64,000 nucleotides of DNA, from NCBI RefSeq assembly GCF_988242995.1, contig NZ_OZ547043.1. One strand, given 5' to 3'. Positions 6,700 through 10,924 of the stretch are shown here, one piece after another. Made by a program: the position numbers and the translations under genes. Under the pieces are notes generated by a model that was not told where the DNA came from, searched no databases, and saw only the letters and a list, made by a program, of their open reading frames with translations. Position 1 is the stretch's first letter, and each line of letters starts with the position of its first letter.

Positions 6700-7890
6700 T
6701 TAATTGCTGTTAACCGAGGTGACCAGATTTGCCAGGTATTTATCGGTAATACGCTGGCGCAGGGTCAGGTTTTCAAGAGGAGGCACCGGTGTATAGTCGT
6801 AGTCGATATACAGTTTTCCGGCCTTGAGGGTTTCCGCATCGTTGGATTCTTCGCTGAACCAGCAGGTCGCATCCACGATATAGCCGTTTGTTTTCAGCTC
6901 ACGGAATTTGGCATTGATGCCGTCAACGATGTCGCGAATCAGCGTTGCGGTGATGGGCTTGTCCACCGCCCACATGTGCGCCTCAGCCATCGTGTCGGCC
7001 ATCACCTGCGCGGTGCGGGTGTAGTTTTCAAAGAGGAACAGCGGGTCATCAGAGCAGGTACGGTTACCCCAGAATCGGAAACCGTCGCGGCGAATCAGCG
7101 TAGTGACGCCTGACTCGTTAAGCAGGTCAGCATCGGTGCCGGACTCCTGCAAATCCCAGAATACAGATGCGCTGATGCCGGTAACACCGTTTACCCCGAC
7201 GTTGGACAGCGTTTTATGCCAGCCCTGCTCCTGGTCGATTTTAGCGCGCAGACCCAGCGCACGGGCGGTGGCATACGCGGTGGCGGTGGTACTGGTGACC
7301 GTATCCCATGCGAGGAAATCCGGCCAGATGACCATCAGCTCACGCTGGCTGAAATTCTGGCGGTAGGCTTTCACCTCGGAAATGGTCTTACAGCCCCATG
7401 CGCTGATATATCCGAAAGCGCGCAGCTTCTGACAGACGGATGCCAGTGCAACAGCCACCTCTTTGGTATCCAGTCCCGGCACGCCGAGAATACGCGGTTT
7501 AACACCGGTTACCGACTCCGCCGCCAGCAGGGCTTTCAGTCCGGTGTACTGACCGTTTTCGTCGGTGGTGCCGATGATATTGGAAACGGTCTGCGCAAGT
7601 TTCGTTTCCTCGTCATCACCGGTGCCGTCTTCCACGCGCACGACAACGGTGACCGGTTTTGACTGGTCAGCGATGGCCTGCAACGATGCCGCCAGCGTGC
7701 CTTTTTTACCGGCCTTTGCAATTGCGCTCTGCACATTGGTAATCAGCACCGGTTTATTGAGGGGGAAGGTTTCCGCATCCGCATCGCTGGCCGTGCAGAC
7801 CATGCCGACAATGGCAGTGGATACGGTGGAAATGACGCGGGTGCCGTCGTTAATCTCCAGCACCTGCACGCCGTGATGATAGTCACTCAT
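6700..7890 (-). CDS. FI: Contractile tail sheath protein gpFI
   Basis: 396 aa, P2 FI length and position. Confidence 0.9.
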   Translation of the reverse strand: MSDYHHGVQVLEINDGTRVISTVSTAIVGMVCTASDADAETFPLNKPVLITNVQSAIAKAGKKGTLAASLQAIADQSKPVTVVVRVEDGTGDDEETKLAQTVSNIIGTTDENGQYTGLKALLAAESVTGVKPRILGVPGLDTKEVAVALASVCQKLRAFGYISAWGCKTISEVKAYRQNFSQRELMVIWPDFLAWDTVTSTTATAYATARALGLRAKIDQEQGWHKTLSNVGVNGVTGISASVFWDLQESGTDADLLNESGVTTLIRRDGFRFWGNRTCSDDPLFLFENYTRTAQVMADTMAEAHMWAVDKPITATLIRDIVDGINAKFRELKTNGYIVDATCWFSEESNDAETLKAGKLYIDYDYTPVPPLENLTLRQRITDKYLANLVTSVNSN

Positions 7891-8206
7891 CCGTTTAACT
7901 CCGTGGTTAATGGGTGCAACTATTTTCTGTTGTGCAGAGCATGAGACGCTATTTGCCCTGGATGGTCAGTGGATGAAACAACAGATACAGAAAAGGCGGG
8001 CAATTCGCCCGCATTTCCTAATTTGTACTAACCCAGCTTCCAACTGACAATTTACGTAGCCAAAAAGCTATCAAGTCTGGCAGACTGATTTGTACGAGGT
8101 GTGGATAACCATAATTATGTGCATGCTAACATCACGGTGCATGAGTCAATCGGGTCTATGCCAAAGAATTACGCCTTGATTGACCATAGATTGCTTGCCC
8201 TTGAAT

Positions 8207-8235
8207 TTGACCATTCCAATAAAATGAATTATGAT
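8207..8235 (+). promoter_or_regulatory. Near-consensus sigma70 promoter for cargo gene at 8258
   Basis: -35 TTGACC (8207-8212), 17-bp spacer, -10 TATGAT (8230-8235); followed by GGAGG RBS at 8247-8251. Confidence 0.45.
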
Positions 8236-8257
8236 AATCGTCAAATGGAGGTGCACA

Positions 8258-8902
8258 ATGATCAAACACACCGCAGCAGAAAGGGAAACCAACACTTCAG
8301 CTAAGCTGAATGAATACCAGTTGAACCTTCTGAAAAGAATTAACAACCTCGCTATTTCCCTGATGCCTGAATTTGAAGACAAAAACCAGGCAATTAATGC
8401 TATCACGCTGGATGATAGTTCACTGATGCAATTGCTCTACACCGTTCAACTCGAACAGAAGACTCGTGTCAATGACTACGAACTACGTAAAGTGCGCCGT
8501 CGTCGCGAAAATCTGGAACGATTTTATCGTGGGCTTCAGGAGTTAGGCGGTACGCTAAAGGTAAATGACGTGGTCGATATTCTTGGAATCACCCGCCAGG
8601 CGATCAACATTCGCGTTAAGAAGAACAAGCTTTTAGCATTCAAGCAGAACGGTGATTTTATTTTCCCGAAATTTCAGTTCACAGATAACGGGCTGATTCC
8701 CGGCTTTGAAGACGTAATGGCGGCATTTGACGAGAATACCCATCCAATGCTGAGGTTGGGTGTGCTGAAATCACCAATAGAGGTTAATAGCGAAGGCCTG
8801 AAAAAGACGCCGATTCAAATCATGCAGGACGGCGCTAAAAATAGTGAACTTAGTCTGGCTATCCGTGCCGCTAAACAGTTCGGAAATCATGTATCCAGTT
8901 AA
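8258..8902 (+). CDS. Cargo protein with HTH and C-terminal DUF2384-like (Xre/ParS/MbcA antitoxin-like) region plus a ~110-aa N-terminal extension of unknown function
   Basis: 214 aa from ATG 8258 with GGAGG RBS; HTH-like DILGITRQAINIRVKK; C-terminal HPMLRLGVLKSPIEVNSEGLKKTPIQIM resembles the toxin-binding domain of RES-Xre antitoxins; ~40% GC versus ~52% in flanking phage genes. Confidence 0.55.
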   Translation: MIKHTAAERETNTSAKLNEYQLNLLKRINNLAISLMPEFEDKNQAINAITLDDSSLMQLLYTVQLEQKTRVNDYELRKVRRRRENLERFYRGLQELGGTLKVNDVVDILGITRQAINIRVKKNKLLAFKQNGDFIFPKFQFTDNGLIPGFEDVMAAFDENTHPMLRLGVLKSPIEVNSEGLKKTPIQIMQDGAKNSELSLAIRAAKQFGNHVSS

Positions 8903-8913
8903 TTGTTTTAAAA

Positions 8914-8935
8914 AGAGGGGCTAGCCAGCCCCTCT
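8914..8935. terminator. Terminator hairpin shared by the convergent cargo genes
   Basis: Perfect stem agaggggc / gcccctct with 6-nt loop in the 38-bp gap between the two convergent stop codons; flanked by A/T runs. Confidence 0.5.
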
Positions 8936-8940
8936 TTGGT

Positions 8941-9651
8941 TTACATTGGTTCTGGCGTAATTTCGAATCCAAGCAGTTCTTCGAACATCTCTTCACCTGA
9001 CATCGTTCCTTTGTGCCACCCTTTAGGGAAGATACCTTCGTCATTTTCGATGTAACTGGCATAAGGCACCATCCCCTGAGGGGTATCGGTAAAGGCTGGT
9101 GTACTATCCGGTCGTTCCCAAAAGGCATAACAGCGTTTATAGCGTTTATGCCTTGAGGTATAGGCTATCCCGTCATAGTCACGCCCGAAATGTGTATAAA
9201 GATGTTCCATTAGCCATTGAGTAAAAGTGTAATCCTCGTTCTCTAAGCTATCCAAAGGAATATGTAACAACTCACAGAGCGCTACAACATCGATCACTTT
9301 CACTGGCCTCATGACATCCACAGAGCACATATAGTGTTGTGAAAGTACCGATTCAGGATAAGAAATCGTCCCTTCGAGATGGAGCAAACGCCCATAAGCT
9401 TCTGCCGCCGCCGTTAACGCAGAGTCAGAGGCATACCATACCGCCACACATCCCCCTGGGGGGTTGTATCGCCCACATTCATTTTCCTCAATTGGCGCTC
9501 TGAAGTTGATTGCGCTTTCATACAACGCCCTTTGATGACGCTTCAAAAGACCAGAGCCTGGTTGAATGTCAATCGCCGGAATACGTCCAGATTTATTTTT
9601 TGCAGCAATTCCTTGTGCAACAATATTTTTTTCAAATGTCCATTTGGTCAT
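8941..9651 (-). CDS. RES-domain protein (predicted NAD+-targeting toxin-like effector)
   Basis: 236 aa from ATG 9651 with AAGGAG RBS; motif ECGRYNPPGGCVAVWYASDSALTAAAEAY resembles the RES-domain core (GGRWNPP...YLADS...E in MbcT/ParT-type toxins); candidate Ser in GIAYTSRH; low GC. Confidence 0.6.
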   Translation of the reverse strand: MTKWTFEKNIVAQGIAAKNKSGRIPAIDIQPGSGLLKRHQRALYESAINFRAPIEENECGRYNPPGGCVAVWYASDSALTAAAEAYGRLLHLEGTISYPESVLSQHYMCSVDVMRPVKVIDVVALCELLHIPLDSLENEDYTFTQWLMEHLYTHFGRDYDGIAYTSRHKRYKRCYAFWERPDSTPAFTDTPQGMVPYASYIENDEGIFPKGWHKGTMSGEEMFEELLGFEITPEPM

Positions 9652-10345
9652 TTTTACTACTCCTTCTATAAACAGATTAAGCCATAGGCTCCTCTCCATA
9701 TTGATTGAAAATAATCCCTACCGTGCTTGCCCGGCAGGGGGTATGAGAACATGTGTATCTCAATCTCGATTATACCAAGCAAATTTTCTATTTTTCGGAA
9801 ATTTAGAGAGTTTTTTTAATGCTTCGCATGCCTTCTCGATGTATTGATGGGGCTGAAAAGAAGAAATAACGCAGGAAGTTTTACGGAAAGGAGAACTATA
9901 AAGATTTTTTTCAAGTGAATTAGAAATAAGAACTTCGCAGGATACTGCATTTTTAGTGAAGATGGGTTGAGTTTCTCAGCAAGAGTCCCGCGAGAGCCGT
10001 ATTGACAGCATGCATGACTCGGAGATTATTCCCCATGCAGGATGGTACACCAATGCAAGAGTTGGTTTACGCAAATGATTGGATGATCGCGATTACCGAC
10101 CGTACATTGCGCAAATAACGTTCTGCGTCGATGCTATTAAGATGCCCCGACCACACCGTACGACGGACGCCGTAGTGATCCGAGCTTAAGAATAGATAAT
10201 CTTTTCTCTCCGGATTCACCGTTCGCAGTGCGTTTTCCATAGCTGTCGCAAGCACAATACTTCCGCTACAGGCACAGAGCGGACTGTCAGATTAGGTTTT
10301 ACTCTGTGCCATAGATGAGTAATCTCACACCAGATCTAATACGAT

Positions 10346-10924
10346 TTATTGTGGCATTTCAGGCCATTCTATATCCGGAGCATCTTCCGGCTGAACGCGA
10401 TTCAGTAGCACACGGTATTTTTTCCAGTGTGTCAGGCTTAACTTTTCTTCCTCGGTAGCCATATCTAAATCGACAGCATCCTGCAGCGTGGCAATAATTT
10501 CACCTGCATATGCAATCAGCTCTTTCTTCTGAGAGTCAGCCGCTCTGACAAGCGCATCACGCTCTGCATTCTCATCATTCACCCACGCATTTCCGTTCCA
10601 TTTCTGATAATCCCCATCCGGGGAAATGGCTGTCACGTCTGGAGGTAATGCGCCAAGTTCAGAAATATAAATGGCTGCTCCCGTTTTCGTTTCGTAGACA
10701 GTCTTTCCGCGATGATCTTCCATCAACTCCCATTTTATTTCATCTGCATTGAAAACGGCTGCATAACCAGCCGGTATATCAGGCGGCGCAATATCTGTAC
10801 TGTTTGCAGGCAGACCTGTATACGGTGGAATATACGCGTCACTTTCCCCAATAAATTCATTGGTTCCATCAAGTAAATTAAATACGCGGATAGTTTGTGC
10901 TTCTGCACTCATTCTGAAAGCCAT
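10346..10924 (-). CDS. G: Tail fiber assembly protein gpG
   Basis: 192 aa, directly downstream of H with overlapping stop/start, P2 G position. Confidence 0.85.

Follow-up and report, generated by a model that had tools for sequence, protein, structure and literature searches.

The closest described relatives of the locus reported here are the Xre-RES systems, among them MbcA-MbcT, ParS-ParT and NatR-NatT, where a RES toxin is encoded in an operon with a helix-turn-helix (HTH) protein of the cro/C1 Xre type. In Pseudomonas putida, it has been shown that the characterised Xre-RES complex represses its own promoter via a palindrome (PMC12204516), and at least one RES-Xre homologue has been reported to be non-canonical in its behaviour (PMC12457610). 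Here, we describe positions 8207-8257 of a 64-kb stretch of DNA (the window, to which all positions refer unless a locus is named), which precede the gene of a 214-aa winged-helix protein in the cargo of a P2-like prophage, and which lie in a cassette with a convergent RES-domain gene. Taken as a whole, the evidence is probably best explained if this interval is the native promoter of a mobile winged HTH (wHTH)-RES cassette that is repressed by its own product via a palindrome.

In the mechanism that we propose, 8207-8257 would comprise a native sigma70 promoter, a short leader and a strong ribosome-binding site of the winged-helix gene, which together with the convergent gene of a putatively NAD+-targeting RES toxin would make up a mobile two-gene cassette. 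This cassette would have come, with its control regions, from plasmids or integrative and conjugative elements (ICEs) and been inserted into the G-FI slot of a P2-like prophage; since the control regions would be native to it, its transcription in the lysogen would require host RNA polymerase but no factor from the phage. The 214-aa protein, alone or bound to RES, would most likely bind the palindrome half-sites at the -35 and at +1 and so repress its own synthesis, leaving a promoter that would be intrinsically strong yet self-limiting, as for type II antitoxin genes. The toxin would not be co-transcribed and would have its own extended -10 promoter followed by a structured leader. Within this scheme, we infer the transcription start, repression by the protein, its antitoxin function and the toxicity of RES.

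Like the Xre-RES, MbcA-MbcT, ParS-ParT and NatR-NatT systems, the locus has a RES toxin homologue beside an HTH protein, a palindrome at the promoter of the HTH gene and carriage on mobile elements, and the C-terminal helical domain of its HTH protein appears weakly similar in fold to MbcA, VPA0769 and NatR. Unlike them, it consists of convergent genes with separate promoters and a shared terminator instead of an xre-res operon; its HTH protein has a winged helix of the HTH_17/Rv2175c kind and no Pfam DUF2384 match, whereas theirs is a cro/C1 Xre protein, and adds an extra N-terminal helical region of ~95 aa; and its toxin gene is served by an extended -10 promoter and a structured leader of its own. 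Judged from sequence, its nearest parallel in working appears to be an autoregulated type II toxin-antitoxin (TA) system of the RES-Xre kind, but it misses the co-transcription of the toxin and the DUF2384 signature. No description of a convergent wHTH-RES pair was found in the literature searched, and we regard the pair as a modest new variant.

The promoter and the start of the winged-helix gene

The sequence upstream of the winged-helix gene was read as ...CTTGAATTTGACCATTCCAATAAAATGAATTATGATAATCGTCAAATGGAGGTGCACAATG, where a sigma70 consensus scan scored TTGACC, 17 bp and TATGAT at 10 of 12 matches (Table 1); sigma70 promoters have hexamers close to TTGACA and TATAAT, 17 +/- 1 bp apart. 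The GGAGG core of the Shine-Dalgarno (SD) sequence lies at 8247-8251 and is followed by six nucleotides (8252-8257) and by the ATG at 8258-8260. An initial annotation of this DNA had given positions for the -35, the spacer, the -10, the GGAGG and its distance to the ATG, all of which proved exact on sequence reading and consensus scan. Across the entire window, four sites on the two strands reach at least 10/12 with a 17-bp spacer, and promoter-like sites that pass a lenient threshold show no enrichment between 5000 and 13000 (5 observed, 9.0 expected). Among dinucleotide shuffles of the 152-nt stretch 8106-8257, 1.8% hold an equally good site with a 17-bp spacer, and 5.4% hold a site of at least 10/12 when spacers of 16-18 bp are allowed. 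By itself, the motif suggests a promoter, being moderately unlikely by chance, and is not decisive. A second promoter-like site of 10/12 (TTGACA, 16 bp, GATTAT) is found at 10002-10029 on the plus strand, in non-coding cargo with no obvious gene downstream on the same strand.

We regard comparative conservation as strong evidence and as the decisive support for the promoter. The 120 nt 5' of the start codon were compared in 22 related loci, and the best sigma70-like site was located in each; it stands at the homologous position, with TTGAC conserved, in 18 of them, among which are all 13 whose RES partner is intact, and three of the four loci where it does not (L008, which has a spacer deletion, L010 and L022) are also without RES. 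Among the 18 conserved loci the spacer is 17 bp, with 18 bp in one, the site scores 8-11 of 12 and the -35 starts 51-55 nt 5' of the ATG, the exceptions being L024 (-61) and L016 (-81), both distant. The position of the promoter is retained down to 24-30% protein identity, and the same layout is seen in four further loci (L031-L034), which also keep TTGAC, and in two plasmid copies. In the orthologous -10 hexamers (TATGAT, TATAAT, TATTAT, TAAAAT, TACAAT, TAGAAT and TATAGT), T1, A2 and T6 are fixed and the middle drifts, the pattern of change typical of functional -10 elements. As for the SD, it reads GGAGGTG in most loci and AGGAGG in Photorhabdus, with weaker forms (TGAGGT, GGGAGT, GAGGGG) in L008-L011. 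The whole arrangement of -35, 17 bp, TAnnnT, SD and ATG, equally far from the start codon, is common to plasmid, ICE-like island and chromosomal homologous loci.

This cross-locus conservation also identifies the TATGAT as the true -10; the alternative GATAAT three bases further (8233-8238) was rejected, as its spacer would be 20 bp and it is without conservation in distant loci. On the sequence comparison, the promoter at 8207-8235 is real with high probability, and the initial proposal that a sigma70-type promoter and a strong SD drive the 214-aa gene is very probable, given that the layout is kept in homologous loci. In kind it is an ordinary promoter, sigma70 with a probable operator.

The start codon was settled in a similar manner. 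All homologues begin at the equivalent of ATG 8258, an SD precedes it in related loci and PGAP calls the same start, 8258, in identical E. coli prophages, so that this is taken as the true start. The in-frame ATG at 8231, which was the start in the list of open reading frames (ORFs), was rejected, since this codon falls within the -10 and lacks an SD, and homologues begin at the counterpart of Met 8258.

Table 1. Features of the cassette and its control regions in the window, with counterparts in related loci
Feature	Position	Strand	Basis or remark
-35 hexamer TTGACC	8207-8212	+	sequence reading and consensus scan
-10 hexamer TATGAT	8230-8235	+	sequence reading and consensus scan; spacer to -35 of 17 bp
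Predicted transcription start	8241-8243	+	promoter geometry alone; ~7 nt past the -10, leader of ~15 nt
Shine-Dalgarno GGAGGTG	8247-8253	+	7-nt perfect complement to the 16S rRNA 3' end
Left arm ATTTGACCATT, putative operator half-site	8205-8215	.	10/11 complementary to right arm; contains the -35
Right arm AATCGTCAAAT, putative operator half-site	8236-8246	.	repeat search; directly 3' of the -10, spanning +1
Arm pair in E. coli A28 island	L002		left TTGACTATT; right AATAGTCAA
Arm pair	L014		left TTGACGATT; right AATCGTCAA
Arm pair	L025		left TTGACGAGT; right ACTCGTCAA
Arm pair	L012		left TTGACTAAC; right GTTCATCAA
Arm pair	L013		left CTTGAC; right GTCAAG
CDS, 214 aa, probable repressor and antitoxin-like partner of RES	8258-8902	+	
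GC-rich hairpin between the convergent genes, probable bidirectional terminator	8912-8937	.	11-bp stem, 6 GC pairs
RES-domain CDS (236 aa) for a putative toxin that targets NAD+	8941-9651	-	PF08808
RES upstream region	9652-9777	-	conserved extended -10 and ~110-nt structured leader
RES extended -10 TGGTATAAT	9777-9769	-	
RES leader hairpin 1	9762-9744	-	
RES leader hairpin 2	9739-9716	-	loop GGCAAGCA nearly invariant
RES leader SD-like GGAGAGGAG	9697-9689	-	SD-like GGAG
RES leader mini-ORF ATG GCT TAA	9685-9677	-	Met-Ala-stop
RES SD AAGGAG	9665-9660	-	
HTH-retaining loci with RES decay	L009 4688-5521; L004 4687-4776; L011 4643-4897; L010; L016		
Imported plasmid-like cargo in P2-like backbone, ~2.2 kb	8106-10290	.	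homology boundaries

The inverted repeat over the promoter

The promoter is overlaid by an inverted repeat with the consensus TTGACnATT / AATnGTCAA, where the -35 is embedded in the left arm. In almost every locus the -10 is followed by AATnGTCAA, and no other upstream element is as well conserved as the right arm. The two arms vary together (examples in Table 1) and agree better inside one locus than across loci: 14 distinct arm pairs score 101 matches out of 126 when paired within loci, where 91.4 would be expected, a value reached by 6 of 20,000 permutations, and at the variable arm positions 6-9 the permutations as good as the observed pairing number 3 of 20,000. Since the gene product is a DNA-binding protein, autorepression via occlusion of the -35 and +1 is the most economical reading, and it is reasonably probable from these alignments that the gene is autoregulated via a putative palindromic operator.

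The initial annotation had predicted strong constitutive expression, which the palindrome and the P. putida Xre-RES parallel make doubtful, as operators are usually recognised by just such a conserved inverted repeat, with co-varying arms that take in the -35 and +1. If the prediction held, an unregulated, strong constitutive sigma70 promoter would keep a prophage defence or regulatory gene on in the lysogen, and the palindrome would be non-regulatory. Such a promoter would suit the near-consensus hexamers, the 17-bp spacer, the perfect 7-nt SD and the conservation of the site, as well as the position of the gene, which occupies a P2 cargo slot and runs against the late genes. However, it would leave unexplained an inverted repeat that is conserved on the -35 and +1, has co-varying arms and stands before the gene of a DNA-binding protein, and it sits poorly with a cassette that matches no defence model and is overwhelmingly plasmid-borne; we therefore consider it unlikely.

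The same co-variation would also be produced by an RNA stem, and the SD begins right after the right arm, so that the repeat could instead be read as a hairpin, of RNA or single-stranded DNA, within a transcript from further upstream, with TTGACC and TATGAT as a by-product. This appears very improbable. The sequence 5' of the left arm is unconserved beyond close relatives, which leaves no conserved upstream promoter to supply the transcript; a TAnnnT stands exactly 17 bp from TTGAC in what would be the loop, where a loop gives no reason for it; and the stem would have a mid-stem C/C mismatch in the commonest variant, has no G-U pairs and finds no Rfam match. A protein-binding DNA palindrome is preferred over an RNA stem because the left arm lies 5' of the predicted start and the -10 keeps a fixed distance between the arms.

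A second exact copy of TTGACCAT is present at 8180-8187, 27 bp 5' of the -35, forming a direct repeat that is absent from the A28 copy. As a regulatory element this repeat was set aside as probably incidental, given that it is unconserved in A28.

The winged-helix protein and its convergent RES partner

The 214-aa protein has an N-terminal helical region, an Rv2175c-like winged HTH (~97-146) and a C-terminal helical domain (~150-213). The protein itself has no match in Pfam (E <= 1), NCBIfam or PADLOC; NCBIfam and PHROGs gave no informative family beyond a weak excisionase-type HTH match, and PADLOC-DB 2.0 returned no defence-model match for either the HTH or the RES protein (E <= 1). PGAP labels the gene "hypothetical" or "DNA-binding protein". 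An ApaH match of a 62-aa ORF was dismissed as chance-level. A profile built from remote homologues matches Mycobacterium tuberculosis Rv2175c (PDB 2kfs) with an E of 1.1e-7, and among 45 remote homologues HTH_17 is found in 29, Rv2175c_wHTH in 16 and the Xre-MbcA-ParS middle domain PF23125 in 6. With Rv2175c (PF21531 and PF18367), the homology covers the wHTH and the C-terminal domain; unlike Rv2175c, to which its identity is 13-14%, the window protein adds the N-terminal helical region and a conserved RES partner. The gene had initially been termed HTH/DUF2384-like, of which the HTH half stands on the Rv2175c profile match and HTH_17; the DUF2384 half does not, there being at best a distant fold resemblance and no PF09722 match.

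The RES gene, to which the initial annotation had not connected its conserved convergent neighbour, encodes a protein that matches Pfam PF08808 with 48.3 bits (cut-off 23.2) and is named "RES family NAD+ phosphorylase" by PGAP. Its hallmark residues GR61xN, E84 and S166-R-H are invariant, and a structural model of it matches the folds of the P. putida RES toxin, VPA0770, ParT and ADP-ribosyltransferase toxins. Its start was placed as in Table 1, because homologues have 236-237 aa and the extension upstream is broken; a longer ORF from 9699 was rejected, as the frame of its 16-codon extension is interrupted by 1-nt indels in L007 and L012.

In every locus with an intact partner, the HTH gene and RES stand tail-to-tail. 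The convergent pair is found in the E. coli A28 island and in Rahnella, Proteus, Klebsiella, Pantoea and Photorhabdus genomes, and metagenomic loci keep it at an HTH identity of 24-30% and a RES identity of 27%. Loci fetched from RES homologues have a convergent HTH gene in four of four cases, one of which adjoins a TraI relaxase and ArdC. Several loci retain the HTH gene but have lost RES, have only a remnant of it or carry an IS3 element in its place (Table 1), and the protein searches returned 127 HTH clusters versus 34 for RES. This frequent occurrence of HTH without RES looks like orphan-antidote decay, a pattern that would be expected of a toxin and its antidote. The conserved pairing, the pattern of decay and the weak fold resemblance together point to an antitoxin role, and we hold it fairly probable that the 214-aa product is the antidote of RES.

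Several points weigh against the autorepressing antitoxin outlined above. On the side of the protein, DUF2384/PF09722 was matched by none of the 45 remote homologues, nor by the window protein in Pfam; the resemblance of the C-terminal helical domain to the fold of MbcA, NatR and VPA0769 is weak; and an AlphaFold model of a fused HTH-linker-RES construct has a pTM of 0.68, a value that comes without an interface read-out. A profile search of PDB did not retrieve MbcA, ParS or NatR. On the side of the DNA, the conserved TTGAC may reflect an operator, a -35 or both; the commonest variant has C facing C at position 6 of the half-site, which makes the palindrome imperfect; the half-sites are ~29-31 bp apart from centre to centre, an unusually wide spacing for a simple dimer; and motif search and visual inspection found TTGACnATT within the cargo at the two arms alone, with no second operator at the RES promoter.

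Some of these points would be accommodated if the protein acted in a two-gene effector system as its sensor or transcription factor, controlling RES or other genes and not neutralising RES by binding, with the palindrome serving homeostasis alone. The lack of a DUF2384 match would agree with this, as would the closest structure, Rv2175c, which is a regulator and not an antitoxin, the separate promoters of the convergent genes, which are unlike TA operons, and the reported non-canonical behaviour of at least one RES-Xre homologue (PMC12457610). We consider this quite unlikely and continue to favour a RES antidote that represses its own promoter.

Co-transcription of toxin with antitoxin is not found at this locus, where RES is on the opposite strand, convergent, separated by an intervening hairpin and equipped with its own -10. 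The hairpin between the genes is flanked by T-runs on both strands, with TTTTT after the stem on the minus strand. In the leader of RES, the stems of both stem-loops co-vary across loci. The mini-ORF that follows them reads GCC TAA, GCA TAA or GCT TGA after its start elsewhere, so that the reading survives changes at the Ala wobble position and in the stop; in two loci a longer ORF stands in place of the two-codon one. The AUG of the mini-ORF is placed in the loop of a small GCC-UAU-GGC hairpin. No Rfam family was found in 7850-10400, which includes the RES leader and the region upstream of the HTH gene.

A probable plasmid origin and the P2-like cargo slot

A homologue is encoded in 235 plasmid records, the majority being conjugative plasmids from Klebsiella, Raoultella and related genera, and no close match was found among 50,697 phage records. 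In IMG/VR, 2 of 2.9 million contigs carry it, both with 100% protein identity and in the same P2-like slot, and 9 of 5,426 complete E. coli genomes have this cargo; among phages, the cassette belongs to a single P2-like lineage. The E. coli A28 island (L002 3641-7687) has 87% DNA identity and stands beside ArdC and IS66 with no phage genes, the Pantoea plasmid copy (L027 417-6203) adjoins ArdA, a DNA methyltransferase and umuC, and an IncU Klebsiella plasmid also carries the pair. Other non-phage neighbours, in the set of L002, L027 and L031, are a TraI relaxase and a DUF5710 protein. These anti-restriction and conjugation neighbours suggest a home in the leading region of plasmids or ICEs. 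TA and orphan-antitoxin genes have been described as enriched in plasmid leading regions and anti-defence islands (PMC11541004), and the cassette resembles such islands in its ArdA, ArdC, methyltransferase, umuC and TraI neighbours and in its frequent orphan HTH copies. In contrast to them, no Frpo-like single-strand hairpin was detected beside it; an Frpo/ssi-like single-strand promoter hairpin in 9770-10300 was rejected, as DNA folding gave z scores of 0.05 and -0.19.

The similarity to plasmid DNA is not confined to the genes. Homology of the cargo to L005, L006 and L027 begins at 8109, and the non-coding DNA past RES (9700 to ~10044 and 10170-10317) is homologous to the Pantoea plasmid L027 and to the Proteus locus L006; in the Rahnella locus L005 it stops at 9944. 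The ~500 nt beyond the RES promoter (9783-10290) match the RES-umuC intergenic region of L027, and are probably non-coding because all tblastx frames score alike; they show no excess of single-stranded DNA structure or RNA-like structure (z about 0). Relative to L027 and L006, the window has an insertion of ~130 nt (10045-10177). As the homology extends through non-coding flanks, it appears that the phage acquired ~2.2 kb of plasmid-type DNA including control regions.

Homology to the P2 family ends at ~8105 and resumes at ~10259-10271, which places the cargo in the G-FI slot. The flanking genes are P2-like late genes on the minus strand, namely the tape measure, E/E', tube FII and sheath FI (6700-7890) on one side and tail-fibre assembly G (10346-10924) with a fibre gene on the other. 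We take this slot to be the Z/fun slot of phage P2, which carries lysogenic-conversion cargo. In P2 itself the same G-FI slot holds two unrelated genes in the same orientation, against the late genes. The cargo described here is like that of P2 in its slot, in its orientation against the late genes and in that expression is expected from its own promoter; it is unlike it in its unrelated gene content and in being found in a single phage lineage.

The initial annotation had further held that expression is independent of the Ogr-dependent late promoters, and this claim is supported by the antisense strand and the non-phage origin of the cassette, as the gene is antisense to both late operons and the same promoter is found on elements without P2 genes. 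An exact TGT-N12-ACA dyad of the Ogr type is absent from 7890-8300 by a search of low sensitivity, which likewise failed to pick up the late promoter expected 5' of FI.

Two further elements were observed at or near the left edge of the cargo. A terminator-like hairpin, GCGGGCGAATTGCCCGC, with a T-run lies at 7996-8012 on the minus strand, in P2-conserved backbone between the cargo and FI, and would block minus-strand read-through from the cargo or fibre operon just 5' of the FI late promoter region. At 8110-8119 there is a 10-bp perfect palindrome, CATAATTATG, within the block CATAATTATGTGCATGCTAACATCACGG (8109-8140 region), which is conserved among the close relatives L002-L006; this palindrome could be a cassette boundary or a recombination site.

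For annotation, the start codon of the winged-helix gene is fixed at 8258, and the cargo is placed under host-type signals, outside the phage late programme, with an expression that is probably self-limited and not constitutive. The P2 cargo slot appears to hold a ready-made plasmid module including its control regions, in which the partner of RES goes unrecognised by annotation resources, as it has no Pfam or PADLOC model. More tentatively, the locus may represent an uncharacterised RES architecture, in which convergent genes with separate promoters would combine an antidote checked by an operator with a toxin gated post-transcriptionally by a mini-ORF leader, all in a leading-region module captured by a phage. 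If that were true, the module could act in the establishment of an element, in addiction or in abortive infection. No RES system shown to defend against phage was found in the literature searched. Should the pair work as a TA or abortive-infection system, the RES family would gain a new regulatory design, and the traffic of genes out of plasmid leading regions into phage cargo hotspots would have a concrete example.
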